Shown: piece after piece, positions 10,178-57,161 of the stretch
Position numbering within the stretch: the first letter of the stretch is position 1
How the letters are laid out: the number at the start of each line of letters is the position of its first letter
Virus record (IMG/VR): IMGVR_UViG_3300001605_000009
Strand: one strand, 5' to 3'
Origin: a virus
Taxonomy: Duplodnaviria > Heunggongvirae > Uroviricota > Caudoviricetes
Length of the DNA stretch: 64,000 nt
Notes under the pieces: model-generated
What the model was told of the DNA's origin: nothing
Seen by the model: only the letters and a program-made list of their open reading frames with translations
Database searches by the model: none
Translations under genes and position numbers: made by a program

Positions 10178-10349
10178 ATTATTCTGGGTCTAAAATGAAA
10201 AGTAGAATAGTTAGTGGCCATACTAAAGACACACCAAGAAGAATCACAAACTGTGTAGACCCAATCTTAATAGGTGAGTCGTATAACATATAAGCTATTA
10301 AGGCTAAAGCTATTCCAAAGTAAATGATTGCTGCTATTTCCATTTTAAC

Positions 10350-11351: not shown

Positions 11352-11442
11352 TGGTAGTCCTGTGTGGATTCGAACCACAATTAACCCCTAATCTGGGCTC
11401 CGGGATATAAATCCGGTCGTTTTACCATTAAACTACAGGACC
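11352..11442 (-). tRNA. tRNA-like gene, 91 nt, with a long extra arm; the anticodon may be UAU (Ile) but the fold is unusual
   Basis: The acceptor strands GGTCCTG and CAGGACT pair, and the D-arm and T-arm (TGTGG-TTCGAAT-CCACA) are canonical. The anticodon region is ccgga-TTTATAT-cccgg, and roughly 20 nt lie between the anticodon arm and the T arm. Confidence 0.5.
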
Positions 11443-14600: not shown

Positions 14601-17600
14601 TAACCCCAGTAACTGTTCTTCCAGCAATCGTAAGATTGTTAAATACATTGCTACCTCTAATACTATTAACGACTGATTCAGCGGAACCACCTGAGGTAAA
14701 ACTTACATTATAATAGGTTTGTTCGCCTCCATTAAATGATTGACTGGCAGCACTCAAGTTAATCGTTGATGTTCCACTTGATAAAGTAAGACCTGTTGGT
14801 ACCGTAATATCCCACCCACCAGAAGATAAAGTAATAGTTGAAGACCCCAAAGTCAACGATCTGGTATTACTATTACTACTAGAAACAGATCCTGCAGTAA
14901 CATTAAAGTTACTAGTGCTGAACGAGCCGTTAGTTAGCGTTAATGTGTATGTACTTAAATTGATAGCGTCAGCAAGAGTCCACTCTCCGCCAATACCATT
15001 GAATGTAATTGGACACCCCAATGCTTTACCACTAGAAGTGATTATTTTACCGGCAGATGTTGATGCAAATGTTCTCACACCTGCGCCAGCAGTAACAGTC
15101 ATGCCTGTTGATAACGTCAGATTACCGTAGATTGTAATGGCACTATTTGGCCAAGTACCCGCAAAACCAGTAAATACTAGATTTCTTACGTTTCCAGTAA
15201 CAGTAGTAGAGCTTGTTCCTGCGGTGATATTAAACGATACACTGTTAGATTCAGATGGAGAACCCGCGATAATAGTTCTAGCTGTTGCAGTAGCGTTAGT
15301 TACGTTTACAATAGGAGTTCCTGTTACTGTCATATTGTATACGTTTGTAGCATCCCATACTGTACCAGTCCCATTAAGAGTTAAGGAGCCATAATTAAAA
15401 GCTAAGGTTCTTGCGCTGTTTGAATTTGTTATAAAAGCAGGACATGAATGATTATTTCCATTCAAATCTAAATATCCAGCCGCAAGTCTTATAGTACTAG
15501 TAGAAGTAGTACCAGTTGATAACTGACCAGTAAGAGTCCATCGTCCAAACAGTCCATTAAAAACTATAGGGAATCCTAGGGTTTTTCCATTTGGATTAAT
15601 AGTATTACCAGTATATGTTGATAAGAATGAAACAGTATTCGTACCAGCAGCCACTGTCATTCCAGTTGATACAGTAAGACTTCCATAAATTCCTAACGCT
15701 ACATTAGTCCATGAGCCTGCAAATCCAGTGAAGTCTAGGTTTTTTATTCTGTTATTAGCAGTGAACGTAACAGGGCCAGTTCCTGCAGTGATATTAAAGG
15801 AAAAAGCATAATCTTCCGACCATACTCCGGCAGAGATCGTCCTAGTAAGAGATGTAACGGCAGTGACATCTACTCTTCTTAGGCCAGAAGTAGTTAAATT
15901 AGTTACTGTAGCAGTATTCCAAATAGTACCAGTTCCCTCTAGTTTTAAATACCCAGTAGACCCAAACATAATAGACCTAGTATTAGAATTACTAGATGAA
16001 AAGGAATTTAGAGATAAAGAGTACTCATTTAAATCAAGTGTACCATTAGTTAGCGTAAGCGACCCCATTCCTGTATTAGTAACATTTACTTTTATTGTAC
16101 TGTTGTAGGCGTCTATATTAGTAATATTTGTAGGTTGATAGCCTACTAATTGGATTTTATTTACTCCGATATAATTTAAAGTACAGCCGATACCCGCAGA
16201 AACACCCATCATATTATTATTACTTCCACACCAGTAAGTAGTAGTCGTGCCATAGGATAAGGTAAAAAGAGTCGATCTAGCGGTGGTATCATAAGTACCA
16301 ATATACCAATTCTGATCAAGAGTAAGAGTACTCCCAGCACTATTGTCATCCACAATACACGTATCTTGTACTAATGGAAAATTAGCAGCATCTGGGGTGC
16401 CACCAGAAGTCAATGCCCAGCCTGGTGAAGACCAGTTACTAACTCCTGGACGGTTCCAATATACGGTTTTTGGCGCTGCAAATGTGATGAGAGAGTTTCC
16501 TCCTGCGTCACCTAAACTAGTGCCGGACCATGTAGCTGTCCCAGATCCTGTAATGTAGCGAAAGTCTACATTCGAAAGGTCCGTTGAAGCTGCGGTAATA
16601 ACTCTAGGGCTGCCTGTTTGGTTACTTTGTAGTAATGTTCGATTTAGTAGTTCAGTACTAGATACAGTTAATGTACTAGTAATTACTACATCACCACCTA
16701 AATATGTAGGCGTTACTCCTACTGAGTCCCTGGCTGGGATATTTAAATTAATAAAAGTTATGGTAGGAGAAGGACTATTAACTGAACTACCAATACTATA
16801 TCCAAATGTATTTGCAGTAAAATTAACAGTACCAAAACTCTGCCCATCTGGAAGAAAGTTTACAATAGCCGCAGTATGCGTACAATTAATAGTAGATGAA
16901 ATACCACTAAAAGTTAGCTCTGTTGAGTTAAAAGTTATAGGTGACTGCCCATTTAGTGTTACAGTAGAAGTACCTAATGTTATTGATCTAATGTTAGAAT
17001 TACTAGACGAAATACTGCCCGCAGTTACATTATAGTTACCTGTGTCAAACGAACCCTTAGTGACTGTGATTTGATTCGTTCCAATATTCAACGCATCTTG
17101 CAGAGTCCACCCACCACCAACACCATCAAAAGTAGCAGGGCCGTTTAATGTGACGCCATTAGATGTAATGGTCTTACCTGTAGAAGTGGCTGCGAATGTA
17201 AGTGATGTATACGCGGCTACTGTTTGACCAGTTCCAAGAGTCAGGTTTCCATATATAGTACCCGCTGTTGGAATCCATGCTCCACTAAACCCAGTGAAGT
17301 CTAGATTCTTAAAGGTACTCGTGCTGGTTGATACGTTTCCTGTTCCGGCTGTGACATTTACAGATGCTTCAGAGAGTGCACCTGTGGTAATTGTTCTGGC
17401 TGTTGCTGATGAGTTAGTCAGATTGACTGTAGGGAACCCCGATATAGCTATAGAAGAGGTCGTATTGAATACTGTGCCAGTTCCCGATAATGATACAATA
17501 CCCGATGTACCAAAATTTAGTGTTCTAGCAGACAGACCAGTAGAAACGAATAATCCCGTTGTGAGTGTGAAGTTATTCAGGTTTAATGTACCAGAGTTTA

Positions 17601-18600
17601 ACGTGGTAGTTCTAGTCGAACCTACGGTAAACGCATCCTGAAGTGTCCATACACCTGTACCATTAAAGTTAATGGGAAAATCTAATAATTTACCATTGGT
17701 TGTAATTGTTCTACTGACATTTGCAAAAAATGTCCAGGCTCTTGTACCCGCAGTCAGTATCATAGTAGGGGATAATATTAAATTTCCATATATGCTTATA
17801 GCAATATTACTTACAGTACCGCTAAATCCAGTAAAGTTTAAATTGTTCACGCGATTGTCTGCGGTGAAAGTAACAATATCTGTTCCGGCAGTAAAGTTAA
17901 AACTTAATTCAGTAGCATTCGCTCCCGCATTTATAGTTCTTGTCCCAGTAGATCCAGAATAAGTGCAGTTAATTGTCGGTGTTCCAGAAACTTTTAATCC
18001 AGTTTGAGTAGCTGCATCAAAAATAGTTGTACCAGAGCCAGTAAGCGTTAAGTCTCCAGTACCAAAGTTAAATGTTCTCGTAGTAGATCCGGAGATATTG
18101 GCTGTTAACGCGGTAAATTTATTAGTGCCTATCGATAGAGTACCCACCGTAAGGGTAAGTGTACTGCTCGTAGAAAATGCCCCGTTTAGGGTAACTGTAA
18201 TAGAGTTGCCATTTACTACTACAGGACTACTAATTATTGAAGTACCAGTATTACATATAGCAGTGGTACCATTGAAGGATAGTGAGCCTGTGTTTGTCCA
18301 ATTAATAGTTCCAGAAATAGTAAGTCCAGAAGTAGTCACAGATATATTACTTGATCCATTAAAAGTCAAAGTGCCTGCTGATGGGTTTGCCATATTAATA
18401 CCAAGAACTGATGTAGTAGCAGTTCTTGTTACTGTGTAGGATGCTCCAGACCCTGCAACATTAGACTCAGAGTCAAAAATGGCAACATCGGCAGTAGTTG
18501 GAACGGCAGCACCTCCAGTTCCTCCAGATGTAAGTGACCAATTAGTTGTGTTCGTAGCATCCCAGGTACCTGTGCCGCCTACCCAATATTTATTAGCCAT
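11626..18600 (-). CDS. giant repetitive Ser/Thr/Gly/Asn-rich structural protein (2324 residues), likely a tail fibre or adhesin with beta-helix-like modules
   Basis: A single ORF of 2324 residues. The module KTVYWNxxGxxxWSxxGWAxxxGGTPxxxNFPLxQDT occurs four times and the module NL(D/V)FTGF(S/A)G(T/A)W at least five times. Composition is low-complexity beta-rich. The gene lies next to small fibre-like genes. Confidence 0.8.
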   Translation of the reverse strand: MANKYWVGGTGTWDATNTTNWSLTSGGTGGAAVPTTADVAIFDSESNVAGSGASYTVTRTATTSVLGINMANPSAGTLTFNGSSNISVTTSGLTISGTINWTNTGSLSFNGTTAICNTGTSIISSPVVVNGNSITVTLNGAFSTSSTLTLTVGTLSIGTNKFTALTANISGSTTRTFNFGTGDLTLTGSGTTIFDAATQTGLKVSGTPTINCTYSGSTGTRTINAGANATELSFNFTAGTDIVTFTADNRVNNLNFTGFSGTVSNIAISIYGNLILSPTMILTAGTRAWTFFANVSRTITTNGKLLDFPINFNGTGVWTLQDAFTVGSTRTTTLNSGTLNLNNFTLTTGLFVSTGLSARTLNFGTSGIVSLSGTGTVFNTTSSIAISGFPTVNLTNSSATARTITTGALSEASVNVTAGTGNVSTSTSTFKNLDFTGFSGAWIPTAGTIYGNLTLGTGQTVAAYTSLTFAATSTGKTITSNGVTLNGPATFDGVGGGWTLQDALNIGTNQITVTKGSFDTGNYNVTAGSISSSNSNIRSITLGTSTVTLNGQSPITFNSTELTFSGISSTINCTHTAAIVNFLPDGQSFGTVNFTANTFGYSIGSSVNSPSPTITFINLNIPARDSVGVTPTYLGGDVVITSTLTVSSTELLNRTLLQSNQTGSPRVITAASTDLSNVDFRYITGSGTATWSGTSLGDAGGNSLITFAAPKTVYWNRPGVSNWSSPGWALTSGGTPDAANFPLVQDTCIVDDNSAGSTLTLDQNWYIGTYDTTARSTLFTLSYGTTTTYWCGSNNNMMGVSAGIGCTLNYIGVNKIQLVGYQPTNITNIDAYNSTIKVNVTNTGMGSLTLTNGTLDLNEYSLSLNSFSSSNSNTRSIMFGSTGYLKLEGTGTIWNTATVTNLTTSGLRRVDVTAVTSLTRTISAGVWSEDYAFSFNITAGTGPVTFTANNRIKNLDFTGFAGSWTNVALGIYGSLTVSTGMTVAAGTNTVSFLSTYTGNTINPNGKTLGFPIVFNGLFGRWTLTGQLSTGTTSTSTIRLAAGYLDLNGNNHSCPAFITNSNSARTLAFNYGSLTLNGTGTVWDATNVYNMTVTGTPIVNVTNATATARTIIAGSPSESNSVSFNITAGTSSTTVTGNVRNLVFTGFAGTWPNSAITIYGNLTLSTGMTVTAGAGVRTFASTSAGKIITSSGKALGCPITFNGIGGEWTLADAINLSTYTLTLTNGSFSTSNFNVTAGSVSSSNSNTRSLTLGSSTITLSSGGWDITVPTGLTLSSGTSTINLSAASQSFNGGEQTYYNVSFTSGGSAESVVNSIRGSNVFNNLTIAGRTVTGVNYLQFNANQTINGTLNIGAGTGPAYRTWLLSQVFDTQITLTVAAISSLVDVDFRDIVVAGTSGNWSGTRLGDCGNNSNITFESSKTVYWNLTGTVNWSANGWATSSGGTPAVNNFPLAQDTAIFDNTGAATTVTFDGLYNTGTINMSARTTVMTLAFGSSTQFVYSDFILGTGVTPTTLTGQLAFLGYTKTQTLNTAGKSFPIAIASYSPSTTVLLGGAFTSTNAINLVGNLDTSNYSVSATTINASEYATINLNGSTVTLSATGTAWQALSTNTINAGTSTIVLTSTTPTFTGGDKTYYNVTFNNTAINTANITGVNTFNNLNIAGRTGSVGISQVIFGGGNQTVNGTLTIGAGTSAIYRTFLQSNTQGTARTITANAISALTDVDFRDITAAGAAGTWTGIRLGDCGNNTNITTSTPKTVYWNLLGNSLWTATAWATTAAGTPAVANFPLAQDTATFTNTGVASTLTINANWNIGTLNYSSRTTASTLAIGTTSPDIYGNVTLYSGLTITGTGVVTFNKSGATQTITSAGVTWPTGINVYNTNSGTTKLGSALTCSGTVSIYTGTLDLNGFTATVSSLQPAVSASIYDFPAIAFGSSAINITGNNGTILYMEVSGGNFNYTGIPTVNLTYSGSTGTRTIFAPGMTETTCFDINITAGSDIISFSTGGVPSIRNYNDTGFTGTYNMASKVNIYGNMTNNSAVLTGFVNFLATSGTKTLTINTTSNACGAFLTFNCPGAIYQLGSAINLAYYSYGATLNTTGGMILKAGTFNANGYDVTVPEFSSSYTSSRALIMGSGNWTIVPYNLTYLQYLIDVSAYSALIPIFGWDISDPTNLTLDKGTANIICTTYSIPVEYQFYGGDQTYNNFTVTPSSTTLQRSTLSIYGNNTFDTMSNTVKPTTIKFEGGSTQTFSSFNISGDSSSLVTITSTNTTPAILKKSTAWNVGANSTNGGNNTGLSFTGTSPNYLSISYITGSIIGAIKKLGAFLAFF

Positions 18601-25003: not shown

Positions 25004-25397
25004 GGTACTTTTCCTTATTATCAGAAGAGAAATAAATACGCTCTTCTTCTTCAGAGAGAGGTCTACTCATTGGAGTATTCTTCTCGTCCCTCCAACACAG
25101 ATGGTTGGTATTCTCAAAAGGTATAAGCCAAGGTGTCATTAATTTCTCCGTGTAAGTGCGGCGGGTTCTGTTTCTAGGTTCCGCCAGACCCAAGAAGAAT
25201 CAAGCTACTAGAGCTAGACCTTCAAATGCTGAGTTATCGTTAGCATTTACTTTTTGTGGCTCTTTGCCAGTCAATAGTCTCGGCGTTCCCTATTACACGA
25301 AAATCGATCCCTGGTCGCCCCCATCATAGAATATCGGACTGTGTAGGTACCAATACACGAGACACTGATAAACGGTCAGGCTCTTCCCAATATTCTA

Positions 25398-25425
25398 TGG
25401 TGGAGGCGGCGGGAATTGAACCCGC
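25398..25425 (-). ncRNA. tRNA/tmRNA 3'-end-like element (T-arm, acceptor 3' strand and CCA) with no matching 5' half
   Basis: The minus strand reads GACGCGGG-TTCAATT-CCCGCCGCCTCCACCA. This matches the 3' end of bacterial tmRNA and tRNA closely. No complementary GGAGGCG was found within plausible distance. Confidence 0.4.
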
Positions 25426-25454
25426 GTCTTTTCGTCTTTATTGTCGGCTGTCAG

Positions 25455-25497
25455 CGACTATATACTCGTTATAACAAAAGTTACAACAAAAGTCAAG
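25455..25497 (-). promoter_or_regulatory. sigma70 promoter (TTGACT, 17-nt spacer, TATAAC) firing into the tRNA/tmRNA-like fragment
   Basis: The minus strand reads aaaaatatttcTTGACTtttgttgtaacttttgtTATAAC, about 45 nt upstream of the fragment. Confidence 0.5.
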
Positions 25498-25732
25498 AAA
25501 TATTTTTCAAGCGTTCGGCCTTAGCACGAAGATGCTCAGCTGGGGACATTCCGTAGTCCTGATGGTTAACAGAAATATTCGCTAGTACAAATCCAAGGTC
25601 TTTTCGCTCCTGATAGAACTGCTCACGCATCTTTCGCTTACGCTCTAGCTTCTGCTCACGAGTTTCTAGATTTGGGAAGTTGACTTGTCCGTTGGACTTT
25701 TGCTTCTGTACGACCTGTTCTGCTTCCTGCAC
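25493..25732 (-). CDS. hypothetical basic protein
   Basis: ORF with the promoter at 25830-25870 upstream. Confidence 0.4.
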   Translation of the reverse strand: MQEAEQVVQKQKSNGQVNFPNLETREQKLERKRKMREQFYQERKDLGFVLANISVNHQDYGMSPAEHLRAKAERLKNIS

Positions 25733-26467: not shown

Positions 26468-26867
26468 TAAGTTACATGAGGATGCAATCATTCCTCAATA
26501 CCAAACTAAGGGGTCTGCTGGTCTAGATCTTCACAGTATTGAAGCAGCCACACTTCAGCCAGGTAAGTACACATTGGTAGCCACCGGGCTATCAATTGAC
26601 CTACCAGAGAACACAGAGGGACAGGTTCGGTCCCGCTCTGGCCTTGCGGCTAAGCACGGTGTACAAGTTCTCAATAGCCCTGGAACTATCGACGAGGATT
26701 ATAAGGGAGAGATCAAGGTCATCCTACATAATGCCGGTGATAGTGTCTTTTCTATTGAGAAGGGAGACAGAATTGCACAGCTAGTCATTGCTCCAGTTTA
26801 TAAACTGGAAGGTTATGCACTAGATAATACACGAGAAGATAAAGGATTCGGGTCAACAGGCTTATGA
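26457..26867 (+). CDS. dut: dUTP diphosphatase (dUTPase)
   Basis: All five dUTPase motifs are present: GSAGLDL, RSRSGLA, GTIDEDYKGEI, GDRIAQL and FGSTG. Confidence 0.9.
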   Translation: MTFNKLHEDAIIPQYQTKGSAGLDLHSIEAATLQPGKYTLVATGLSIDLPENTEGQVRSRSGLAAKHGVQVLNSPGTIDEDYKGEIKVILHNAGDSVFSIEKGDRIAQLVIAPVYKLEGYALDNTREDKGFGSTGL

Positions 26868-27058
26868 GAGTAGAAATTAGAAACAACAACGTCGAACGAG
26901 GAATGCAAGTACTCAAGCGTAAGCTAATTGACGAAGGCGTGTTTAAAGAAATGGCCGAGCGCAGGCACTATGAGAAGCCTAGCGACAAGAAGCGCCGACT
27001 AAAGCGCGCAGCCATCACCAGGGAGAGACGCAGGGAACGTAGTCGTAATGATGCGTAA
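26864..27058 (+). CDS. ribosomal protein bS21-like (phage-encoded S21 homolog)
   Basis: A 64-residue basic protein. VEIRNNNVERGMQVLKRKL...FKEMAERRHYEKPSDKKRRLKRAA aligns with the bacterial S21 pattern (V.VR.NE...AL.RFKR..EK.G...E.RRR.FYEKP...RKR.K). Its ATG overlaps the dUTPase stop codon. Confidence 0.65.
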   Translation: MRVEIRNNNVERGMQVLKRKLIDEGVFKEMAERRHYEKPSDKKRRLKRAAITRERRRERSRNDA

Positions 27059-27064: not shown

Positions 27065-27403
27065 GTGGATCAATGCATAAATGAAGTAGTTAATACAGTA
27101 TACGCCGAAAGTAGGGGTACTGGTGAAATGGGAATGAAAGCTGTAGTTCATGTAATAATGAATCGCAGCAAAGATCAAAAAGTTAGGCCTTGCGTTATAG
27201 TAAGACAACCTAACCAGTTCGCCAGAGGTAAGAGTAGACCTAGTGATCCAGCATGGCAGATGGCCAAAAAGTTGGTTCTAGAGCCTGGTAAAGATATTAC
27301 TAGAGGTGCTCGTTACTTCCATAATCTTACGGTTAAGCCTAGTTGGAGTTATCGCTTTAGAGTGACAATGCGATTAGGTAGGCATATATTTTATAAACCT
27401 TAA
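27065..27403 (+). CDS. cell wall hydrolase, SleB/CwlJ family (candidate endolysin)
   Basis: VYAESRGTGEMGMKAVVHVIMNRS matches the Hydrolase_2 signature (AEARGE...A.V.NR). A GTG start is likely. A rho-independent terminator follows the gene. Confidence 0.65.
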   Translation: MDQCINEVVNTVYAESRGTGEMGMKAVVHVIMNRSKDQKVRPCVIVRQPNQFARGKSRPSDPAWQMAKKLVLEPGKDITRGARYFHNLTVKPSWSYRFRVTMRLGRHIFYKP

Positions 27404-30693: not shown

Positions 30694-30948
30694 CTGGTAT
30701 CCATTCTATCTTATGGTAGGCTACAACTCTTGTTACGAAGCTCCCGTCAGGGTATTCTAGCTCTAGAGTTACTCCGGTGGTGTTCATGCCACGAACGTAC
30801 CCATGAACTATGTATTCTACATTGTGGTCGTCCCACATATCTGTAATTAATCTACATTTCATACTGCCTCTCCAATATCCTTACTTTAGCTTATATTAGC
30901 TTCAATGTCAACAAATAAAAAGGGGGAAGCCGAAGCTCTCCCCTCTCA

Positions 30949-31161
30949 TTACTTTGCTAATTTCTTACCAAGAAGGTAGATGCCGATCCCTGGTAAAGCT
31001 ATAGGCCATAGAAGGGCCAGCCCCAGAGTTCCTATTACGTAAAACATAACTTTACCTGAGTCGATGCTACCACCACGGTTACAGAAAAGACTTTTAGTGT
31101 TCCTCCCGGCGTTAAATACTGAGTAGACTAATACTATAATAAACCCCAGGAGCCAGATCAT
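30949..31161 (-). CDS. small membrane protein with two transmembrane segments (NfeD-like partner of the SPFH protein?)
   Basis: A 70-residue hydrophobic protein whose start overlaps the end of the SPFH gene. Confidence 0.4.
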   Translation of the reverse strand: MIWLLGFIIVLVYSVFNAGRNTKSLFCNRGGSIDSGKVMFYVIGTLGLALLWPIALPGIGIYLLGKKLAK

Positions 31162-31955
31162 TTTACGTTCACAATACCTTTGAAGTCATAGGGAACCACG
31201 ATAGTGCCGACCTTACCTTCTTTGATAGCCTCTGAAATATTAATCAGAGCCTGTGCTTCCATGTACTTGGTAGCACCAGAGTTGGCGTTTAGAGCAGCAA
31301 TACGCTCAGCTTCTAGCTTAGCAGTTCGTACTTCGGCTTCTTTAGTCTTAGTGCCATTCTGTGCCCGAACTAGTTCGTTTGCAGACTCTACAATACTATC
31401 AGCGGCTTGAATATTCTTTACCAGAACCTGAGATACATTGATCGAAGTACCTAGCTTTTCAGCATTAAGCTGATCTACAATTTCTGCACGAACTAGCTGT
31501 TCGATTTCAGCTCGGTTATCTGCCATCTTTAGTGACTCATAGCGACGAGCAACTTTGTATGCAGCGTTACGGGCAAGTTGGTGAATGTAGTTATACATTA
31601 GAAGGGTATCACCTTCTTCTGTTACCTGATGGAATCCACGATTCTTTTCAATGTAAATCTCAGCCGCTGAAGCTGGGTTCACCGAGTAAATAACTGAGAT
31701 ATCAAAGTCCTTGACACTAGAGTTATCGGAAGCTAGAGGATGAAGGTCGACAACATCTACTGACACGTCCTTAACTGGGAAGGTCATAACAGAACCAAAC
31801 ATGGTCTGATTAAGAGTACCTGCACCAAGTTCAGCAGTCTCAACTTGCTTATCCATACCAACTCGAACACCGACTTCACCAGTCTCAATACGAGTACAGG
31901 CCGATGCGGAAACTACTAGACCGGCAAGAAGAGCAAACTTTGTAAAACGATTCAT
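31158..31955 (-). CDS. SPFH (band-7, stomatin/prohibitin-like) domain lipoprotein
   Basis: A signal peptide with Cys (LVVSASAC) is followed by an SPFH-like core and a coiled-coil tail (ADNRAEIEQLVRAEIVDQLN...EAEVRTAKLEAERIAAL). Confidence 0.65.
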   Translation of the reverse strand: MNRFTKFALLAGLVVSASACTRIETGEVGVRVGMDKQVETAELGAGTLNQTMFGSVMTFPVKDVSVDVVDLHPLASDNSSVKDFDISVIYSVNPASAAEIYIEKNRGFHQVTEEGDTLLMYNYIHQLARNAAYKVARRYESLKMADNRAEIEQLVRAEIVDQLNAEKLGTSINVSQVLVKNIQAADSIVESANELVRAQNGTKTKEAEVRTAKLEAERIAALNANSGATKYMEAQALINISEAIKEGKVGTIVVPYDFKGIVNVK

Positions 31956-32282
31956 GAAAATTCCTTAAAATAGAACGATGATTAGGATAACTGCGAATAT
32001 CGTTGCAGTTAGTGAGTACATTATAGGATAAAATAAAGGCTTTGTCAAGTCCCAATCTAGGGAAGGTATGATTTTAATCCCAAAGAAGACTAGACAAAAT
32101 ACAAACAAAAATCCAAGTATAATCTTACCCATTAGTGAATAGTATGCGCAATGAGATACTCCTCCTCAACAAACCAAGTAACCAGTGTTTTCATTTCTGA
32201 GTCATCAAAATCCATATACGACTGGATAAAGCTAAGATCCTCTCCTTCTAGTAGAAGACTAAGAGCGTCCAGCTTTTCTTCT

Positions 32283-32606
32283 TCATCCACCATTGCCAAG
32301 AAGCTCCATTAGTGCGGGATCGAAATAGACATGACCCTTAGTACGTTCCTTACTAGGATCGGCCTTCGCTACTACAGTAACGTGAGAACTAAACTCCTTT
32401 CCTCGAAGCCTTTCGATAAGACTAGTGGTGTACTCAACCATGTCTTGGTTGTATACAATCCAGAAAATATGTTTAGTTGGGTTAGCTGGAAGGCCAAGAA
32501 TGGCTTGTTCCCGTTTTACGTAAGAAGTCACTGCTTTCTCCTTGTTATGCCTCATTATACTGAATTGACACGAAGATGTCAACACTGAAATTAGAGTATC
32601 TTGCAA
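32283..32606 (-). CDS. hypothetical protein
   Basis: ORF only. Confidence 0.3.
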   Translation of the reverse strand: MQDTLISVLTSSCQFSIMRHNKEKAVTSYVKREQAILGLPANPTKHIFWIVYNQDMVEYTTSLIERLRGKEFSSHVTVVAKADPSKERTKGHVYFDPALMELLGNGG

Positions 32607-41528: not shown

Positions 41529-42014
41529 TCATTGTGGACCACAAGGGTCAACAATGATTTGGTGGAATCCCTCATCTAATGTGGGCGGCTGATAGTTACG
41601 ATCCATCTGCCTAAGAATATGCTCTGGAATCCGTTTATCAGGCCTGCTAGCAAGTCGTTCTGCCCAATTATCAGGAATTGGAAAAACAACTGCCGTAAAC
41701 TTATGGTTTGGCAATGCCTTAAACAACCGTGCGCGACTCTTTACTGTTAAGTTTGTACGATCAATGTAAACATCTTCGTTACACCCTTCTAGAAGTTCCC
41801 AAAAATGTGCCTCTGCTTTCTTGATGTATTCTGGGAACACATTATTATATGTTTGTCCTCTAAGCTTAGCAAATAACTCGATAAAATCATCACTAGAAGC
41901 TACAAAGATATTATCTGGTCGGCTGGCAAGCCACGTAGACTTGCCAACTCCAGGAAGACCCACTAAAACATACGCATTAGGCATTATAAATAACTCCTGG
42001 AAACCATTCTGCAC
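41529..42014 (-). CDS. P-loop polynucleotide kinase-like protein (kinase domain of T4 Pnk-type)
   Basis: Walker A motif GLPGVGKST. The gene is small and sits next to the RNA ligase genes. Confidence 0.6.
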   Translation of the reverse strand: MQNGFQELFIMPNAYVLVGLPGVGKSTWLASRPDNIFVASSDDFIELFAKLRGQTYNNVFPEYIKKAEAHFWELLEGCNEDVYIDRTNLTVKSRARLFKALPNHKFTAVVFPIPDNWAERLASRPDKRIPEHILRQMDRNYQPPTLDEGFHQIIVDPCGPQ

Positions 42015-43191
42015 GGATTTCTTCGTACTTACTAGTCTTAGCTAGATTCTTGCGAATAGTATTATAAATTTTTTGCTCACAAACACTAACGGCATCTACG
42101 TACAGAACCTCGTCCCACATAGCAAACGCTATAGATCTATTAAGCCCACTCATTTTATTCGCATATGTGGTCGCGAAAGTCTTCCGATCCATACCACCGA
42201 TACGCCGACAGTTAGATACTTGTGAAACAATAGAGAGTGCCAAAGGATGAATAACTTTATTAAAGTCATTCTCGAACTGAGAAAGACGATCACGCTCTTC
42301 TTGTGGAAGATGCGCTTTCACGTCGTCTAGCTTTTGATCTAGAATAAGTTCAACAATGTGGCGATCCTGTAGAATACGCTCCTTAGCCTTGTGAATCTGC
42401 ACGTACCAGTCACACTTTAGCTTTACCATGTGTCCGTTGTCAAAACGCACAACGAAGCCTTCAGTGTCCTGAAGATCACGAGTGTGCTCAATAAGACCGT
42501 TGATGTGCTCCTGGGACGGGAAGGATTTCACAATTGGGATATTATACTTCTCGATAATAGGATAGTTATTATGAAGGTTGATAATATAACTACCGCGCTC
42601 CATATTACGAATAGCTGTAAGAATCAGACGATCCTCTGGATAGTCTAGAACGATGCGCTGCTTACGTGAGCACCACTCAAAAATAGGAGTAAACCCATTC
42701 TCGATAAGATCACGAGAGAAGTCAATGTAGTGTGGATTGTTATTCACAAACTCCTCAACAGGCTTCGCCACATCAGTAGCACCCATCTTAGTACCGAATA
42801 CTAGAACAGCACGATTAAAGAATGGGGCAATCATTGATCCATCCAGTTTATCCAGAATGATGTGATCCTCATACAGAGGAACATTCTCGGTCTCTGGTCG
42901 TTCGTTTACGTTGAAGAACTTGTGATAAGGACGGCGAAGAATATCGCCCGTTTCGTTGTCAAAGATAATACCCCGACATTCACGACGAGTAGCAGCGTGC
43001 TTAGCATCCGTAAAAGCTAGCTTGTTAAGCTGCTCGCTCCACTCAATCACAGGCGGAAAAGTATCCTCAAACATCACATTGTAGTTGATAACGGTATAAC
43101 CGTCTTTAACAGCCACTACAAATTCACTACGACCTTCAATCGCAGGAAGCACATCACTGATGTTACGAATTACTGGGAATTGATAGTTCAT
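41977..43191 (-). CDS. RNA ligase 1 (T4 RnlA-like)
   Basis: ECRGIIFDNETGDILRRPYHKFFNVNERPET aligns with the T4 Rnl1 segment [34 protein letters not shown]. The nucleotidyltransferase lysine motif DKLDGSM is present. Confidence 0.75.
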   Translation of the reverse strand: MNYQFPVIRNISDVLPAIEGRSEFVVAVKDGYTVINYNVMFEDTFPPVIEWSEQLNKLAFTDAKHAATRRECRGIIFDNETGDILRRPYHKFFNVNERPETENVPLYEDHIILDKLDGSMIAPFFNRAVLVFGTKMGATDVAKPVEEFVNNNPHYIDFSRDLIENGFTPIFEWCSRKQRIVLDYPEDRLILTAIRNMERGSYIINLHNNYPIIEKYNIPIVKSFPSQEHINGLIEHTRDLQDTEGFVVRFDNGHMVKLKCDWYVQIHKAKERILQDRHIVELILDQKLDDVKAHLPQEERDRLSQFENDFNKVIHPLALSIVSQVSNCRRIGGMDRKTFATTYANKMSGLNRSIAFAMWDEVLYVDAVSVCEQKIYNTIRKNLAKTSKYEEIRAEWFPGVIYNA

Positions 43192-44383: not shown

Positions 44384-44556
44384 GAGCAAGTATCTGGCAT
44401 ATCATAACCCGCAGAATACTTAGGGGCTATCCCATTGTCTGACCCCTGCCAGTATGCTACACCATCTATGCATATAATTTCATATTTAGGTTTAGGGGTT
44501 GGCTCACTGCAACCCGAGAGTAGACCTAGACATAGAATAATTACTGGATATTTCAT
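44380..44556 (-). CDS. small lipoprotein (58 residues, lipobox LLSGC)
   Basis: MKYPVIILCLGLLSGCSEPTPKPKY... It is below the 60-residue ORF cutoff of the track. Its ATG overlaps the Rnl2-like stop as ATGA. Confidence 0.45.
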   Translation of the reverse strand: MKYPVIILCLGLLSGCSEPTPKPKYEIICIDGVAYWQGSDNGIAPKYSAGYDMPDTCS

Positions 44557-45569
44557 GAATTAATCCTTTTAATAAACCAAGGGCGAGCCTTGTTAGCAAT
44601 TGGTCCACCAAGCTTCTTAGGATCAAACCCAGAGGCTACAATAGTATCGGTTTCTTCCTTTACAACATCGTTGTAGACCCAACGAATGAAGTCACCCATT
44701 GAAGTCATATCTAGGGGCTTTAGTTGCTCACGAACTAGGTTATCAACACCCTGTTCTAGACGTTGCTCGGTAACTGTAGTGTCAACGAAGTCCTTGAGAG
44801 CTTGAACGGCTTCAACGTCTACAGCAGCTAGAGTCTTAACCTTAGATGCTGAGTGCTTTTCACCCTTTACCTTGAAACGAAGACCTTCCCAACCTGGTGT
44901 AACGCAGGTCCAAACAACACCTTCTCCGACACCAGATACACCGAAAGCCTTGCCCACAGGGCATTCGTTTTCGACGGCTTCTGTGATTTCGATCATGCGG
45001 TTCTGTGCTAGTTCAGGATGTGCGAAGTCAATGTCAAGCTCCCACATTGGAAACTCCTCAATGTCACGAACACCTGGAATATCAGTAAACTCAGTTTCTC
45101 CAGATAGAGGGTCACTCCAGAGCTCTGTACCGTCTTGTTCAATAAACTTCACTGCGAAGATGACAAACATCTTAGGCAGTTCACTAACAGCCACACCACG
45201 TTGAATGCCTTGTCCACACCACTCACCGTATACGGCAATCTTGCGCACACTTGGGTGGCTCATAGTACCAAAGAATTCTAGCCACTTTTTCTCGTACTTC
45301 ATCTGTGCTAGCATGAAGCCAGCGTTATCCTGAGTAAGACTTAGCACCCGTTCACGAGACTGATAAGAAAGTTCTTGTGAAACATAATCGTACACTACAG
45401 CTGCGTTTGTACCGTGAAGCTTCACAGTACCATGAAACTTCAGAGTTGGAAGCTCCCGTGTATGGTCATAGATTGGCTGGCCTGTATCATCCTTACCGAC
45501 ATAGCGGTGTGACGCCTTCACATGATGAATGACGTTGCGAAACTGCTCGATTGATGGAAACTTAATCAT
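44553..45569 (-). CDS. RNA ligase 2-like nucleotidyltransferase (start corrected to an internal ATG with a ribosome-binding site)
   Basis: KLHGTN matches the KxHGTN lysine motif of T4 Rnl2. The promoter at 45578-45640 and the ribosome-binding site taaggagat place the start at 45569 rather than 45752. Confidence 0.65.
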   Translation of the reverse strand: MIKFPSIEQFRNVIHHVKASHRYVGKDDTGQPIYDHTRELPTLKFHGTVKLHGTNAAVVYDYVSQELSYQSRERVLSLTQDNAGFMLAQMKYEKKWLEFFGTMSHPSVRKIAVYGEWCGQGIQRGVAVSELPKMFVIFAVKFIEQDGTELWSDPLSGETEFTDIPGVRDIEEFPMWELDIDFAHPELAQNRMIEITEAVENECPVGKAFGVSGVGEGVVWTCVTPGWEGLRFKVKGEKHSASKVKTLAAVDVEAVQALKDFVDTTVTEQRLEQGVDNLVREQLKPLDMTSMGDFIRWVYNDVVKEETDTIVASGFDPKKLGGPIANKARPWFIKRINS

Positions 45570-45577
45570 TCTTATCT

Positions 45578-45640
45578 CCTTAACAAAACAAATATAGCCC
45601 ATCAACCGAGAAAAGTCAAGGGCTATTGAAAGGCTTGGTC
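45578..45640 (-). promoter_or_regulatory. sigma70 promoter with TTGACT, a 17-nt spacer and TATATT
   Basis: The minus strand reads caatagcccTTGACTtttctcggttgatgggcTATATT. Confidence 0.55.
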
Positions 45641-45775
45641 CATAAAGTCGTAATATGCCTGTGTAATCAAAAGTGATTAGTGTATAATCATCTGACATGA
45701 AGGCATACTCGTTTATCTCGTCTGCGTAGCACCTAGGTTCCGTCCGGTCCATACGTAAATATCATCCGGCATTGT

Positions 45776-47115: not shown

Positions 47116-48492
47116 TTACTTGATTTCAGCGCGTTTTCGAATGTCCTCGAAAGTTTGCTGCTTAGGGACTTCTCCGTCTACAAAGACTACTCGAAGATAG
47201 TCACCTACTGTTTCATAGTCGTCTTCATGATTACTTACTGTAAAGTACTCGTTGTAGAATGTTTTACCTAACTTCAGCAAGCCCCGCTTAGAGCGCTTAC
47301 CACTATCAGTGACTGGATCTTTATAAACATCAACCCATTTGCCGTTGATCTTAGCAGCTGAGCACTTCATGGCGAATTTAAAATCGTCTCGATTAACGAT
47401 CTGAAGAAGCGCGCCGCCCTGACCAAAGACTACGTTATCAGCACTGAAGTCGTGTGCTGCTAGATTGTCTAGAATAGCACGAATAGAGTCGATGTTGATA
47501 CCGTCACCCTGCAATACGCGAACGTTATTAAGAACCTTAAAGCCCTTTTCGTTTACAGTGTAGCCGAAGTATTCTGCTAGAATGCTTACGCAGTCTAGTA
47601 CTACTTTCTTTGGCTCTCCAGAGTCCGGACGAACAACAAGAGTAGCGCCGCTGTCTAGAACATCCTGCTTTAGTACTGTACCCCACAGCTTGCAGGCTTC
47701 ATAGATATTGTAGCTGTCTGAAACAGCGGATACAATACCACCTGGCTTACCATTCTTCTTAACCATGTTACGGTACGCGTCAACTTCGTTTTCGCGACCC
47801 CAACTGGTTACAGTGCTATGTTCCATAGCGGGAACACTGAACCCAGCCATATCAGCACCATAGTGGCGACGAGCAAAGAGCAGAGCTTCAATAGTGTCAG
47901 TACCCATGAAGTTGACAAGATGCGCTGCTCCGCCAATTCCAGCCGACTCAAGCGAGCTAACACCGCGAGAACCAAAGTCATGAAGCTTAAAGCTAATATC
48001 AGCAGGAGTTCCAGTGCGAACGAGAGCATCTAGAATGACCTTCTTAATTTCGCGGCTATTGGTAGCCACAGTTGTAGGATACCAGATCGCTCGAAGAAGC
48101 GCGGTTTCTAGGAACGACGTCAACCACCAGCAATTTGGATCAGTATTCTCAATAGTGGCGAGCACGTTATGAGTTGGCACGACAGTGCCCTCATGTACAG
48201 CTGTGATAAGAACAGGAAGACGACCGTCATGCTCACGAACAATGTACTCCCAACCCTCACGGTTGAAAGGCTCACCATGTGCTAGAATGATGGCTTCCGC
48301 TTCATCAATCATTTCCATAGTGATAGGTTCCATCAAGTATTCTTGAATGAATGCCTGAAGACCAAAGAACACAGTTTCGTCGTACTTGCCACCACGGCTT
48401 TCGATGTAGCTATATACGATTTCAGTACCTTCGGGGTACTGGTTAAATTGGCTGTATTTGTAGCTATCGCTGTTTAGGATAATGTTTTTCAT
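47116..48492 (-). CDS. nadV: nicotinamide phosphoribosyltransferase (NadV/NAMPT)
   Basis: A 458-residue protein with an NAMPT-like N-terminus (LNSDSYKYSQFNQYP) and overall family architecture. Confidence 0.8.
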   Translation of the reverse strand: MKNIILNSDSYKYSQFNQYPEGTEIVYSYIESRGGKYDETVFFGLQAFIQEYLMEPITMEMIDEAEAIILAHGEPFNREGWEYIVREHDGRLPVLITAVHEGTVVPTHNVLATIENTDPNCWWLTSFLETALLRAIWYPTTVATNSREIKKVILDALVRTGTPADISFKLHDFGSRGVSSLESAGIGGAAHLVNFMGTDTIEALLFARRHYGADMAGFSVPAMEHSTVTSWGRENEVDAYRNMVKKNGKPGGIVSAVSDSYNIYEACKLWGTVLKQDVLDSGATLVVRPDSGEPKKVVLDCVSILAEYFGYTVNEKGFKVLNNVRVLQGDGINIDSIRAILDNLAAHDFSADNVVFGQGGALLQIVNRDDFKFAMKCSAAKINGKWVDVYKDPVTDSGKRSKRGLLKLGKTFYNEYFTVSNHEDDYETVGDYLRVVFVDGEVPKQQTFEDIRKRAEIK

Positions 48493-49959: not shown

Positions 49960-50144
49960 CTCCTAATAATTGCTTGATGACCACAATTAGGGCAGTCTAC
50001 CCACTCGTGTCCATCAGGACCGCCACTGTAGTCCCTACCACGGTACTCTTTCACTTCACAGAGCTTGTACTCTAGAATAGAAGCACATCCGCGACAGGTA
50101 ATCCGCTTCACAGCTGACTCGTCTCGTCCTACAACTTTAACCAT
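49953..50144 (-). CDS. zinc-ribbon protein
   Basis: CRGC...CPNCGH motif. Confidence 0.4.
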   Translation of the reverse strand: MVKVVGRDESAVKRITCRGCASILEYKLCEVKEYRGRDYSGGPDGHEWVDCPNCGHQAIIRSW

Positions 50145-51189
50145 TTAGTAGTTCCTTAATGATATGATAATGATCGTCGAACATAACACTTTCATCTAGC
50201 TCAGAGATATTAATCCAGCCAGCTGAGACAGCATCATCTGCGCCAACCACATCAGGTCGTTTACCCATCCAGCTAATATCAAAGTAAAAACAGTGACTTA
50301 CAGTATGTCCCATAGTTGAGCGACCTGGATGATCGGCAATGAACAGCTTTGGCTTCCCACTAAGTAGTAGGTCATCCTTAGTAAGTTGCAAACCAGTTTC
50401 TTCAAGCAGCTCACGAAGTGAGCCAGCTAGTGTGCGCTCGCCCGCATTAAGATGGCCCCCAGGAAGAGCTAGAAGCCCCTTACCGGGGTGTTTTCCACGC
50501 TCTACAAGCAGAATCTGGTCGTTATATCGAACCACAGCATCTACAGTGATCTGCTTAACAGGATACGGGGAAGAAGACCACAACTCTGTGTTTATATCAA
50601 TTTCTGTCTGCCAATCAGACATGTAGTTGATAAAACCTAGCTCAGAGTTAGTAATTACGTCTACTGTGCTCCATGGGAGGTTATCTAGCTGTAGCGAAAA
50701 GTCTCGGAAGAGTTCTTCACGAATATCAGTGGCATTCAGCGGGGCATCAATAGCCCACTCTACTAGATCATAGTTTGGGAACATATCAAGGTAGTAGCTA
50801 GACTCGTCCTTACGGGCACCGATGATGCCAATCTTGAGGTCAGCAGTACCATTGTTGTGAAATCCATCAGGATTGGCAACGTCTAGTGCTGTGAACTTGA
50901 TAGCTTCTCTTACTTCGGCAGCCCATGCACTATCATCATAGGGCTGGTCCCGAATAGCGTCTGTATATAGATTTGTGCCTTCAGGATAAGAAGCTAGAAT
51001 CATATCAGAGCGCTCTTCATAGGTCCATGGATTCTTTGGAGTACGCGCACCACCAGAACTTCCAATAAGAACTAGGACGTTCTTGGCTTTGGTAAAAGCA
51101 TGGTCGATCACACTCTTGTGACCCTTATGAAACGGCTGAAAGCGTCCGATGTATACTAGAAGGTCGTACATTATTATCTCCTTATGCAC
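50137..51189 (-). CDS. bifunctional NMN adenylyltransferase and Nudix ADP-ribose pyrophosphatase (NadM-Nudix, NatV-like)
   Basis: Nucleotidyltransferase motif GRFQPFHKGH at the N-terminus and Nudix box GGHLNAGERTLAGSLRELLEETG at the C-terminus. Confidence 0.85.
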   Translation of the reverse strand: MHKEIIMYDLLVYIGRFQPFHKGHKSVIDHAFTKAKNVLVLIGSSGGARTPKNPWTYEERSDMILASYPEGTNLYTDAIRDQPYDDSAWAAEVREAIKFTALDVANPDGFHNNGTADLKIGIIGARKDESSYYLDMFPNYDLVEWAIDAPLNATDIREELFRDFSLQLDNLPWSTVDVITNSELGFINYMSDWQTEIDINTELWSSSPYPVKQITVDAVVRYNDQILLVERGKHPGKGLLALPGGHLNAGERTLAGSLRELLEETGLQLTKDDLLLSGKPKLFIADHPGRSTMGHTVSHCFYFDISWMGKRPDVVGADDAVSAGWINISELDESVMFDDHYHIIKELLNG

Positions 51190-51222: not shown

Positions 51223-51459
51223 CTATTTACTAACGACCCAGTAAGCAAGTGCGAGAGGCCCTAGACAAGCTAATCCGGCTAGAAACATAGGAATGGTGGC
51301 TGGCCAAAGTAACCCAAAGAAAAAGCTACCTATAGCTATAGCCTCTCGTTCAGCTGTATCTATTTCTTCTCCCTTACGAATAAATGTTAGGAATTTTAGA
51401 TATACGTAGGCAGATAGAGGGGCTAATATAATAAAGCCAATAAACCAACTAACAATCAT
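51223..51459 (-). CDS. small membrane protein
   Basis: Hydrophobic ORF. Confidence 0.3.
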   Translation of the reverse strand: MIVSWFIGFIILAPLSAYVYLKFLTFIRKGEEIDTAEREAIAIGSFFFGLLWPATIPMFLAGLACLGPLALAYWVVSK

Positions 51460-57154: not shown

Positions 57155-57161
57155 AAGTTGT

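Follow-up and report, generated by a model that had tools for sequence, protein, structure and literature searches.

SPFH cages are understood structurally, and the clients and purposes of the bacterial ones are mostly obscure. Virus-encoded SPFH proteins have been annotated repeatedly and then called "poorly understood". The closest described systems are HflK/HflC-FtsH of E. coli, in which a heteromeric, transmembrane (TM)-anchored pair encloses FtsH; the SPFH-NfeD operons (QmcA-YbbJ, PH1511-PH1510, and FloA-NfeD); and the 16-mer of human stomatin. In NfeD partners, the C-terminal domain is an OB-fold (PMC4208085); QmcA-YbbJ is oriented toward the cytoplasm (PMC13086221). Viral SPFH lipoproteins have been noted without an assigned function (PMC10892097, PMC7760394, PMC13239085).

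We analyzed an SPFH gene and its neighbors in a window of 64,000 nucleotides, the whole stretch of DNA under study. The window harbors genes for PolA, DnaB, NAD-ligase, RNA ligases, and NAMPT together with 14 tRNAs and a tmRNA; it is therefore clearly phage DNA, as the earlier note on this DNA had supposed, and the carrier is a large lytic-type phage. A search of phage records for DNA nearly identical to the window returned no match. Three ORFs were confirmed on the minus strand in the order mini-ORF (32132..31965, 55 aa plus stop), SPFH lipoprotein (31955..31158, 265 aa), and 70-aa protein (31161..30949), amid replication and nucleotide-metabolism genes. The ATG of the mini-ORF overlaps the stop codon of the preceding ORF (TAATG), and a 9-nt gap separates the mini-ORF from the SPFH ORF, the only SPFH gene found at the locus in an ORF survey. 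A Shine-Dalgarno sequence for the SPFH gene (AAGGA, 31962..31966, minus strand) lies 6 nt before its ATG and overlaps the mini-ORF stop codon. The start of the 70-aa ORF overlaps the SPFH stop codon by 4 nt (ATGA), an arrangement predicted to couple its translation to that of the SPFH gene.

Promoters were called by consensus scans, in which 12/12 denotes a perfect match. A perfect sigma-70 consensus promoter (32554..32582, minus strand) was found upstream of the operon, followed by two small ORFs, the mini-ORF, the SPFH gene, and the 70-aa ORF. Another perfect promoter (TTGACA-17-TATAAT, 32020..32048, minus strand) lies 65-93 nt ahead of the SPFH ATG, embedded in the mini-ORF; a match of at least 10/12 occurs at this position in 32 of 81 related loci. 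A terminator-like GC hairpin with a T-run (30924..30943, minus strand), located 6 nt past the stop codon of the 70-aa ORF, probably closes the transcription unit, and a 10/12 promoter match follows it (30911-30883, minus strand). The consensus sigma-70 promoters suggest that the module is expressed early.

The SPFH ORF matched Pfam Band_7 (PF01145) at E=8.3e-15 with 55.7 bits (gathering threshold 23.6), in an alignment that spans positions 2-176 of the 176-position profile, and PHROG 200 "lipoprotein" at E=8.8e-32. As a single-sequence query it found no match among PDB sequences; the family profile matched SPFH chains only (prohibitin-2, stomatin, HflK, and QmcA). An AlphaFold monomer model (pLDDT 87.4) gave PHB1/2, HflK/C, erlin, stomatin, and QmcA as the best Foldseek matches in the PDB (1e-13 to 1e-7, probability 1.00), all of them full-length cage protomers, and a BFVD entry 71% identical to the protein matched with a TM-score of 0.81. 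Membership in the SPFH/Band 7 family, which the earlier note had proposed and left to a profile check, is thus well supported. Homologs were found in 36 phage records. The viral "Band 7 domain" lipoproteins of PHROG 200 (e.g., UniProt A0A6J5MAS0 of an uncultured Caudovirales phage) and the SPFH lipoproteins annotated in Vi01-like, RaK2-like, Schitoviridae, and Acinetobacter phages belong to the same family.

The protein consists of a signal peptide and lipobox (residues 1-20), SPFH1 (~20-92), SPFH2 (~94-184), CC1 (186-224), CC2 (228-246), and a C-terminal tail, GKVGTIVVPYDFKGIVNVK. In the AlphaFold model, residues 20-92 form strands, 94-184 are mixed, and 186-224 and 228-246 are helices, so that the predicted fold comprises SPFH1 and SPFH2 followed by CC1/CC2; the C-terminal strand motif is conserved but of low confidence in the model. 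The tail is the most conserved segment of the family alignment, with G247, V249, P255, and V264 invariant, and its low pLDDT in a monomer is expected, because the strand would be ordered only in an oligomeric cap. In SPFH cages, the subunit count has been regressed on CC1 length (y=0.1782x+10.22; PMC12624060). By extrapolation of this regression, a CC1 of 39 aa would correspond to about 17 subunits; an oligomeric ring of about this size is plausible for the modeled protomer. Human stomatin resembles the phage protein in protomer length, CC1 length, and full-length fold (TM-score 0.54-0.58), and also in being homo-oligomeric with a lipid-modified (palmitoylated) anchor. It differs in being eukaryotic and cytoplasm-facing and in carrying its hydrophobic hairpin in the same chain, whereas the phage protein has an N-terminal lipid anchor and the hairpin is encoded by a separate gene.

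To classify the N-terminus, we used a regular expression across the family, with a basic n-region, a hydrophobic h-region, and a lipobox [LVI..][AST..][GAS]-C within the first 15-35 residues as the lipoprotein pattern. The SPFH N-terminus, MNRFTKFALLAGLVVSASA followed by C20 (31896..31955, minus strand; Cys codon TGT at 31898-31896), fits this pattern with R3 and K6, the stretch FALLAGLVV, and S-A-S-A-C20; the mature protein would begin C-T-R-I-E-T-G. Cys20 was conserved in at least 90% of a 52-sequence family alignment, and a lipobox was present in approximately 66 of 82 distant full-length cluster representatives, the remainder having an uncleaved N-terminal TM anchor. The lipobox was also kept in 80 chromosomal SPFH homologs. 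The lipoprotein-type signal peptide described in the earlier note is borne out by this conservation, and the SPFH protein is predicted to be a bacterial lipoprotein and SPase II substrate. The conserved lipobox, or in the minority of members the TM anchor, directly precedes the SPFH domain, suggesting that the domain faces the periplasm. TM-anchored family members (S-CREM1 and B23) likewise carry the upstream hairpin gene, which argues for the inner membrane; we place the protein there tentatively, since retention is not predictable from the +2 residue.

The mini-ORF is missed by standard gene callers; it is absent from the gene track of the window and unannotated in the phiEa2809 record and in the gene calls of the related loci L004, L006, and L176. 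The earlier note had placed it at 31970-32135; the ORF exists, with ends a few bases away from those positions. Hydropathy indicated two TM segments, and AlphaFold gave a helical hairpin (residues 2-20 and 34-54, joined by a loop) at pLDDT 70. We defined its family, termed type A, as proteins of 53-65 aa with a TM-loop-TM layout whose genes directly precede an SPFH gene and which match an HMM derived from 45 IMG/VR members. This HMM ranked the window mini-ORF best among 4,974 small ORFs (E=2.6e-11), and the top five were all SPFH-adjacent. Among 52 unique versions of the mini-ORF, 50 were exactly 177 nt long, the others being 174 and 168 nt, and substitutions at the three codon positions numbered 32214/19959/39799. 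This constancy of length and the codon-position pattern constitute a coding signature; the mini-ORF is judged to be coding from its sequence, with translation predicted. We also considered whether the loop motif LTK is merely the -35 hexamer of the embedded promoter. This was rejected: TTG-ACA codons occur in a subset only, and both helices are conserved at the protein level, well beyond the promoter hexamers, so the embedded promoter does not explain the mini-ORF. The type A loop has a mean net charge of +2.2 with about four K/R, and the C-terminus is uncharged, suggesting a topology with both termini periplasmic and the basic loop cytoplasmic. The loop of the window mini-protein is three residues shorter and non-basic (net charge 0), so that the topology is less well supported for this copy; the 55-aa variant is common to the window and its relative L176.

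In 80 of 81 related loci, the SPFH gene was directly preceded by a hairpin ORF (the 58-aa homolog). Among 159 homologs of the mini-protein, the next gene was Band_7 in all seven sampled, and in these reverse look-ups the pair stayed together while the other neighbors varied. Hairpin ORFs also lay next to distant SPFH homologs in eight of nine cultured phage lineages examined. Six other phage groups have such adjacent hairpin genes: Kyanoviridae, Ackermannviridae, Straboviridae, Schitoviridae, Obolenskvirus, and a jumbo Burkholderia phage. In the window, small ORFs with at least two TM segments made up 7 of the 121 other gene-like ORFs (~6%); against this background, the pairing in the related loci and in the cultured lineages is not due to chance. 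Homology of the hairpins across the most distant phages was not demonstrable by HMM (BUCT-ZZ01, E=1.9), and the flanking hairpins of the distant groups are analogous genes. These comparisons point to the upstream 55-aa mini-protein, rather than the 70-aa protein, as the conserved partner of SPFH, and the two may interact physically. In the literature searched, we found no description of a pairing between SPFH and a hairpin mini-protein, and the sources on viral Band 7 lipoproteins, as far as searched, did not mention a hairpin partner.

The 70-aa protein (type B) has two TM segments by hydropathy, and the earlier note was right that two small membrane proteins flank the SPFH gene. A basic loop joins its TM1 to a long TM2 that contains Pro (LLWPIALPGIGIYLL), and a basic tail, GKKLAK, follows. 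Among the related loci, homologs were limited to those most closely related, L007-9 (83 aa) and L176 (70 aa). A search of 5.8 billion (5.8e9) proteins returned only two matches, and its HMM found no distant homolog. The protein is a clade-restricted ORFan. Hairpin proteins of 83-90 aa encoded upstream of SPFH in Acinetobacter phages share a "WP[IL]" motif with it and were considered as homologs, but the HMM search was unsupportive; they are positional and architectural analogues only. The locus resembles SPFH-NfeD operons in that an SPFH gene and small membrane-protein genes are predicted to be co-transcribed, and in that the partner plausibly lies within the membrane patch beneath the cage. 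Unlike those operons, it encodes partners that consist of TM hairpins alone, and its SPFH domain is probably extracytoplasmic. Neither small protein matched Pfam (including NfeD, PF01957), NCBIfam, PHROG, or PADLOC even at E≤1, and their 55 and 70 residues are filled by two TMs and a short loop, leaving no room for an OB-fold (PMC4208085). The NfeD likeness drawn in the earlier note therefore fails as membership. Its emphasis on the 70-aa protein in the "NfeD-like position" was also inverted, the conserved partner being the 55-aa ORF that it had listed as "not in the track".

A genome scan with a 15-sequence alignment identified chromosomal SPFH lipoproteins, 49-63% identical over the full length, in freshwater Burkholderiales (Rhodoferax, Polaromonas, Aquabacterium, Roseateles, and Massilia) and in Bdellovibrio/Bacteriovorax. 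They share the lipobox-TRIETGEVG start and a C-terminal DFKG motif with the phage protein and are single-copy in variable housekeeping contexts, on which grounds a prophage origin was rejected. By this sequence likeness, the phage module matches a cellular family of freshwater Burkholderiales and Bdellovibrionota. A 60-aa hairpin gene lies upstream of the Roseateles, Mitsuaria, and Parvibium copies. The mini-gene is missing beside most chromosomal homologs (Rhodoferax, Polaromonas, Bdellovibrio); the SPFH protein is thus evidently able to function by itself. The 70-aa gene accompanies none of the chromosomal homologs.

The core of the module is thus a lipid-anchored SPFH protein, whose protomer has the complete stomatin/prohibitin/HflK architecture, together with an upstream hairpin; the clade of the window adds the downstream 70-aa protein. 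We infer, with a probability of roughly 45%, that a lipid-anchored SPFH ring or dome and its dedicated 55-58-aa hairpin insulate or stabilize a patch of the host inner membrane early in infection. Host RNA polymerase would transcribe the module early from the consensus sigma-70 promoters, and the SPFH protein would be exported and lipidated at Cys20. About 16-18 copies would then join through CC1/CC2 and the conserved C-terminal strand, forming a ring or dome at the periplasmic side of the inner membrane. The hairpin mini-proteins, with termini in the periplasm and the basic loop in the cytoplasm, would make up the portion of the assembly that lies within the membrane, acting either as a fence or as a client enclosed by it, and the host membrane patch would be insulated or stabilized during infection. 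Membrane remodeling and protease control, both raised in the earlier note, are possible roles.

Other readings were weighed against the same evidence. A periplasmic SPFH ring might mimic HflK/C by binding the periplasmic domain of host FtsH and sequestering or retuning the protease, thereby protecting phage or host membrane proteins. The lipobox suggests the same, periplasm-facing membrane side as HflK/C, the SPFH1-SPFH2-CC1-CC2-CT protomer is shared, the best fold matches include HflK chains (1e-12), and homologs are labeled "regulator of protease activity HflC" in some sources. We nevertheless consider this reading quite unlikely: the protein resembles prohibitin, stomatin, and erlin at least as closely as HflK/C, and an NCBIfam scan of all three proteins at E≤1 gave no meaningful match, HflK/HflC equivalog models being absent from the results. 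The module has a single gene rather than a K and C paralog pair, its much shorter protein has a lipid anchor instead of the TM helix that HflK/C use beside FtsH, and no gene for FtsH or another protease lies near it. Superinfection exclusion or an envelope barrier, in which an early periplasmic lipoprotein and small inner-membrane proteins would block later genomes or protect the envelope like T5 Llp, TP-J34 Ltp, or T4 Imm/Sp, would suit the consensus early-type promoters and the Imm-like size of the 2-TM proteins. In phiEa2809, a gene two positions downstream is annotated "superinfection exclusion protein" (annotation only). The reading is improbable, because the only matches of the three proteins in Pfam, PHROGs, and PADLOC were Band_7 and PHROG 200, with no meaningful PADLOC match and none to exclusion or defense families (Imm, Sp, Llp, Cor), and because close homologs that are ordinary chromosomal genes amid housekeeping neighbors fit poorly with a phage-specific role.

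The earlier note had also raised lysis timing, with the small 2-TM proteins acting like holin/antiholin and SPFH regulating triggering. The 70-aa protein is class-II-holin-like in outline (two TMs and a basic C-terminal tail), and the sole cell-wall hydrolase gene (Hydrolase_2, 27065-27403) is within 3.5 kb. That hydrolase, however, is eight genes away on the opposite strand, no lysis cassette adjoins the module, and the small proteins had no Pfam or PHROG match to holin, endolysin, or spanin families. The mini-protein ends at the membrane without a charged tail, the module sits among replication genes behind sigma-70 promoters, and the same gene pair occurs in non-prophage chromosomal loci; lysis timing is thereby weakened to a very unlikely explanation. 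Alternatively, the lipoprotein may be sorted to the inner leaflet of the outer membrane and act alone, with the hairpins linked to it by shared regulation or the embedded promoter and not as physical partners. Its +2 residue is Thr, which directs E. coli lipoproteins to the outer membrane. The conserved promoter within the mini-ORF and the absence of the mini-gene beside most cellular homologs are also consistent with this idea, as is Pasteurella PM0222, a prophage HflK/C-like SPFH protein found in outer-membrane vesicles (PMC9872710), the sole experimental datum on such a protein, which may or may not belong to the present family. We find solitary action in the outer membrane hard to credit, given that the protein-level constraint on the mini-ORF extends well past the promoter hexamers, that TM-anchored members retain the hairpin gene, and that the pair persists while all other neighbors change.

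A bolder form of the preferred inner-membrane reading, which we regard as rather unlikely, makes the hairpin the obligate second subunit of an unrecognized two-component, periplasm-facing SPFH cage with which unrelated large phages (T4-like, Vi01-like, N4-like, and jumbo) wall off inner membrane early in infection. Such a cage would combine a lipid-anchored dome with a transmembrane palisade or client provided in trans, and it might serve to keep out the genomes of superinfecting phages, to disarm host defenses that act at the membrane, or to control FtsH. SPFH and the mini-gene form a simple two-gene system (~320 codons) with a defined candidate client, and it is carried by phages that can be cultivated on tractable hosts (Acinetobacter, Erwinia/Salmonella Vi01-like, and Synechococcus). 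If the partnership proves negative, the SPFH gene would be an ordinary host-derived auxiliary membrane gene. The pairing described here indicates that one widespread family of phage and bacterial SPFH lipoproteins has a dedicated micro-protein partner, one usually missed by gene callers.

Three ORFs were packed tightly together on the minus strand of the window: a 55-aa mini-ORF (32132..31965), a 265-aa SPFH ORF (31955..31158) and a 70-aa ORF (31161..30949). The ATG of the mini-ORF shared bases with the stop codon of a preceding acidic 55-aa ORF, a Shine-Dalgarno sequence (AAGGA) was located 6 nt before the SPFH gene, and the start of the 70-aa ORF overlapped the SPFH stop codon (ATGA). Hydropathy analysis revealed two hydrophobic segments in the mini-ORF and two in the 70-aa ORF, and the AlphaFold model of the mini-protein was a helical hairpin (H2-20 and H34-54, pLDDT 70). 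Both small membrane proteins that the earlier note had placed beside the SPFH gene were thus present; the mini-ORF existed with the features described, and its coordinates had been a few bases off. Small ORFs with two TM helices accounted for 7 of the 121 genes in the window.

The product of the middle gene is a member of the SPFH/Band 7 family and of PHROG 200. The earlier note would have dropped the SPFH assignment if profile searches failed; instead, Pfam Band_7 spanned the protein end to end (55.7 bits against a threshold of 23.6 bits), and the PDB chains matched by a 52-sequence family profile were all SPFH proteins (prohibitin-2, stomatin, HflK and QmcA). The match to PHROG 200 ('lipoprotein') had an E-value of 8.8e-32. 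The AlphaFold model (pLDDT 87.4, pTM 0.70) agreed, with a beta-rich SPFH1 domain, SPFH2, a 39-residue CC1 helix and a CC2 helix, and its best PDB structure matches were full-length cage protomers (PHB1/2, HflK/C, erlin1/2, stomatin and QmcA; E 3e-13 to 7e-8). The lipoprotein-type signal was also borne out: the N-terminus carried R3, K6, FALLAGLVV and SASA-C20, Cys20 was nearly invariant across the family, and of 82 full-length cluster representatives, which reached down to ~25% identity, about 66 kept the lipobox, the remainder having an uncleaved N-terminal TM anchor instead. Because the SPFH domain begins at most three residues after Cys20, the domain as a whole lies outside the cytoplasm. 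Conservation within the family was highest in the C-terminal tail, GKV.TIV.P.DFKG..NV. Its low confidence in the monomer model would be expected of the strand that caps SPFH cages, as described for erlin and prohibitin (PMC12624060). Extrapolating from CC1 length by the regression of subunit number published in the same study (PMC12624060), a putative ring would contain approximately 17 subunits. The family was compact, with only 304 clusters at E<=1e-3 among 1.84 billion representatives; UniProt/BFVD already holds a viral entry that is 71% identical, under the name 'Band 7 domain containing protein'.

We compared the locus with 80 related viral loci (63-77% identity), together with metagenomic and jumbo-phage contigs of up to 346 kb. 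An ORF of ~58 aa with two TM helices was found on the same strand, 10-20 nt upstream of the SPFH gene, in 80 of the 81 loci with upstream sequence, counting as present four seeming misses in which ORFs were artificially lengthened through a tRNA gene. Among 52 distinct nucleotide versions of the mini-ORF, 50 were exactly 177 nt and the others 174 and 168 nt. Substitutions at codon positions 1, 2 and 3 numbered 32214, 19959 and 39799, and both helices remained hydrophobic as the sequence drifted to ~30% identity; by these measures the mini-ORF evolves like protein-coding sequence. A profile search returned 159 homologs, all of them unannotated and nearly all with a length of exactly 58 aa. At all seven places sampled, the next gene encoded a Band_7 protein of 265-267 aa, while the other neighbors differed (glycosyltransferase, AAA_33 kinase, RNase H-like, RegA-like, RNA ligase); the pair therefore moves as a unit. 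Gene calls of three related loci (L004, L006 and L176) also omitted the mini-gene.

The 70-aa protein was confined to the nearest relatives of the window (L007-9 and L176), and in 5.8 billion proteins two homologs of it could be detected. On the sequence comparison, the real conserved partner of the SPFH gene is the mini-protein and not the 70-aa protein. Two more small ORFs with two TM helices (51223-51459 and 10179-10343, both minus strand) share with the 70-aa protein a 'hydrophobic-W-P-hydrophobic' motif in the second helix (LLWPATIP, VWPLTIL); the former was a marginal HMM match (E=0.003) and may be a paralog. Five consecutive ORFs of 52-64 aa, each with two predicted TM helices, formed a tandem array at 54451-55353 (minus strand).

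The comparison was extended to cultured phages whose SPFH proteins were just 24-49% identical to that of the window, and a small hairpin gene again abutted the SPFH gene. Synechococcus phage BUCT-ZZ01 had hairpin genes of 58 aa upstream and 79 aa downstream, and Synechococcus phages S-CREM1 and B23 had genes of 53 and 54 aa. Burkholderia jumbo phage BCSR5 had one of 65 aa, with a tRNA between, and Acinetobacter phages carried genes of 57 and 90 aa (PhT2), 85 aa (nACB1) and 83 aa (Bphi-R2919). In Erwinia phage phiEa2809 (L092, KP037007.1), an unannotated 64-aa ORF with two TM helices (1253-1447) adjoined the annotated SPFH gene at its start. Acinetobacter phage Mithridates was the only cultured phage examined that had no adjacent hairpin gene. 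After its SPFH lipoprotein come a 160-aa G-D-V/S-G-x-V repeat protein reminiscent of bactofilin (L002, 3307-3789) and then an unannotated 55-aa ORF with two TM helices. A mini-protein HMM from 45 close members was run on 4,974 small ORFs, and the best five hits were all SPFH-adjacent: the window (2.6e-11), L130 (1.5e-9), BCSR5 (8.8e-4), Parvibium (5e-3) and Roseateles (0.044). BUCT-ZZ01 and the other distant hairpin ORFs were not significant in this search, so homology of the hairpin proteins is demonstrable only part of the way. The longer 'type-B' proteins of the Acinetobacter phages were considered as kin of the 70-aa protein, and the HMM detected no relation.

When one genome of each species was scanned, 80 chromosomal SPFH homologs (49-63% identity) were found. 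They belong to freshwater Burkholderiales (Rhodoferax, Polaromonas, Aquabacterium, Roseateles, Massilia, Undibacterium and others), Bdellovibrio and Bacteriovorax, and every one of them starts with lipobox-TRIETGEVG. A prophage origin was ruled out because their neighbors were variable housekeeping genes (AspRS, NUDIX, 5'-nucleotidase, KatG, a lactate dehydrogenase-type FMN enzyme, an ABC transporter). The mini-gene was absent beside most of the 80; a 60-aa hairpin gene occupied the same place in the Roseateles, Mitsuaria and Parvibium copies. In a rough, unrooted neighbor-joining tree, phage and cellular sequences interleaved, and lineages bearing the mini-gene flanked those lacking it on both sides. 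This pattern suggests an ancestral pair followed by secondary losses. The pair closest to the phage type was on L130, a contig binned as a Candidatus Saccharibacteria MAG (GC 0.62), which may instead come from a phage or from Burkholderiales and have been binned wrongly.

The sequence marks the origin of the window unmistakably as a large phage. It encodes a family-A DNA polymerase, DnaB helicase, NAD-dependent ligase, two RNA ligases (41977-43191 and 44553-45752), dUTPase, dCMP deaminase, ribosomal protein S21, 14 tRNAs and one tmRNA, as well as an NAD salvage pair on the minus strand, nicotinamide phosphoribosyltransferase (NAMPT) and an NMNAT/Nudix-type cytidylyltransferase (47116-48492 and 50137-51189). 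The permuted, alphaproteobacterial-type tmRNA (25157-25500, minus strand; Rfam alpha_tmRNA 79.7 bits, tmRNA_permuted 90.8 bits) has the tag peptide ANDNSAFEGLALVA and is a hint of a host among the Alphaproteobacteria; the closest cellular SPFH homologs, in contrast, come from Burkholderiales and Bdellovibrio. S21 (26864-27058, plus strand; Pfam E=1.7e-15) lies between the dUTPase and a Hydrolase_2 cell-wall hydrolase; together they form a short plus-strand island in a region otherwise on the minus strand, and relatives L007-L009 have this island too. A single 2,324-aa ORF (11626-18600, minus strand) adjoins a tRNA cluster, and a 91-nt tRNA-Ile with anticodon TAT (11352-11442, minus strand), unusually long for Ile, abuts a tRNA-Leu.

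A motif scan found two perfect sigma-70 consensus promoters (TTGACA-17-TATAAT) on the coding strand, one at 32582-32554 and the other within the mini-ORF at 32048-32020, which is 65-93 nt ahead of the SPFH gene. Across the 64 kb, the minus strand has only six sites that match at 12/12. The -35 hexamer of the internal promoter encodes Leu-Thr (TTG ACA) in the mini-protein loop, and 32 of 81 relatives have a match of at least 10/12 at this position. Downstream of the 70-aa ORF lies a GC hairpin with a T-run (30943-30924, minus strand). From the promoter motifs we infer that the SPFH module would be transcribed early by host RNA polymerase, and the SPFH and 70-aa genes can probably be transcribed apart from the mini-gene via the internal promoter. 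Elsewhere, twelve 11/12 near-consensus promoters, mostly TTGACA-17-TAAAAT (54268-63861, plus strand), face several 12/12 sites (58779-62975, minus strand), an arrangement that resembles a divergent early-promoter region.

The SPFH protein is neither HflK nor HflC, since it matched neither model and had no paralog pair. NfeD bears an OB-fold (PMC4208085); the small proteins had no OB-fold and no NfeD match. Of the operon proposed in the earlier note, the SPFH lipoprotein therefore stands, the NfeD-like partner does not, and it is the mini-ORF that encodes the conserved partner. The locus resembles SPFH-NfeD operons in logic, a scaffold with a co-transcribed membrane partner, but differs in the nature of the partner and in membrane side; QmcA-YbbJ faces the cytoplasm (PMC13086221).

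The best-supported reading is that an early-expressed, extracytoplasmic, lipid-anchored SPFH ring would work with a helical-hairpin inner-membrane micro-protein. The loop of the mini-protein family is basic (mean net charge +2.2, about four K/R), and its uncharged C-terminus stops at the membrane. By the positive-inside rule, the basic loop would place both termini at the periplasmic surface, the side on which the SPFH1 domain and the lipid anchor lie. However, the loop of the window's own mini-protein is shortened and non-basic, which argues against this topology for this copy, although L176 conserves the variant. That most cellular SPFH homologs manage without the mini-gene likewise speaks against the hairpin partnership. 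The inner membrane is favored as the site of action, because SPFH members with a TM anchor in place of the lipobox are necessarily located there and retain the hairpin gene. Against an inner-membrane ring, Thr at +2 would direct outer-membrane sorting by E. coli rules, and a possibly related HflK/C-like protein from a Pasteurella prophage was located in OMVs (PMC9872710).

As for the role of this putative ring and hairpin, FtsH control, superinfection exclusion, lysis timing and general membrane maintenance are candidates that sequence data do not separate. Lysis timing, which the earlier note had proposed, ranks lowest; the locus is not a lysis cassette, because the only nearby cell-wall hydrolase (27065-27403) is on the opposite strand, eight genes away. 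The function of phage SPFH lipoproteins has been called unknown (PMC10892097, PMC7760394, PMC13239085, PMC10269572), and no description of the mini-protein was found in the literature on them; the locus offers a clear route to experiment.
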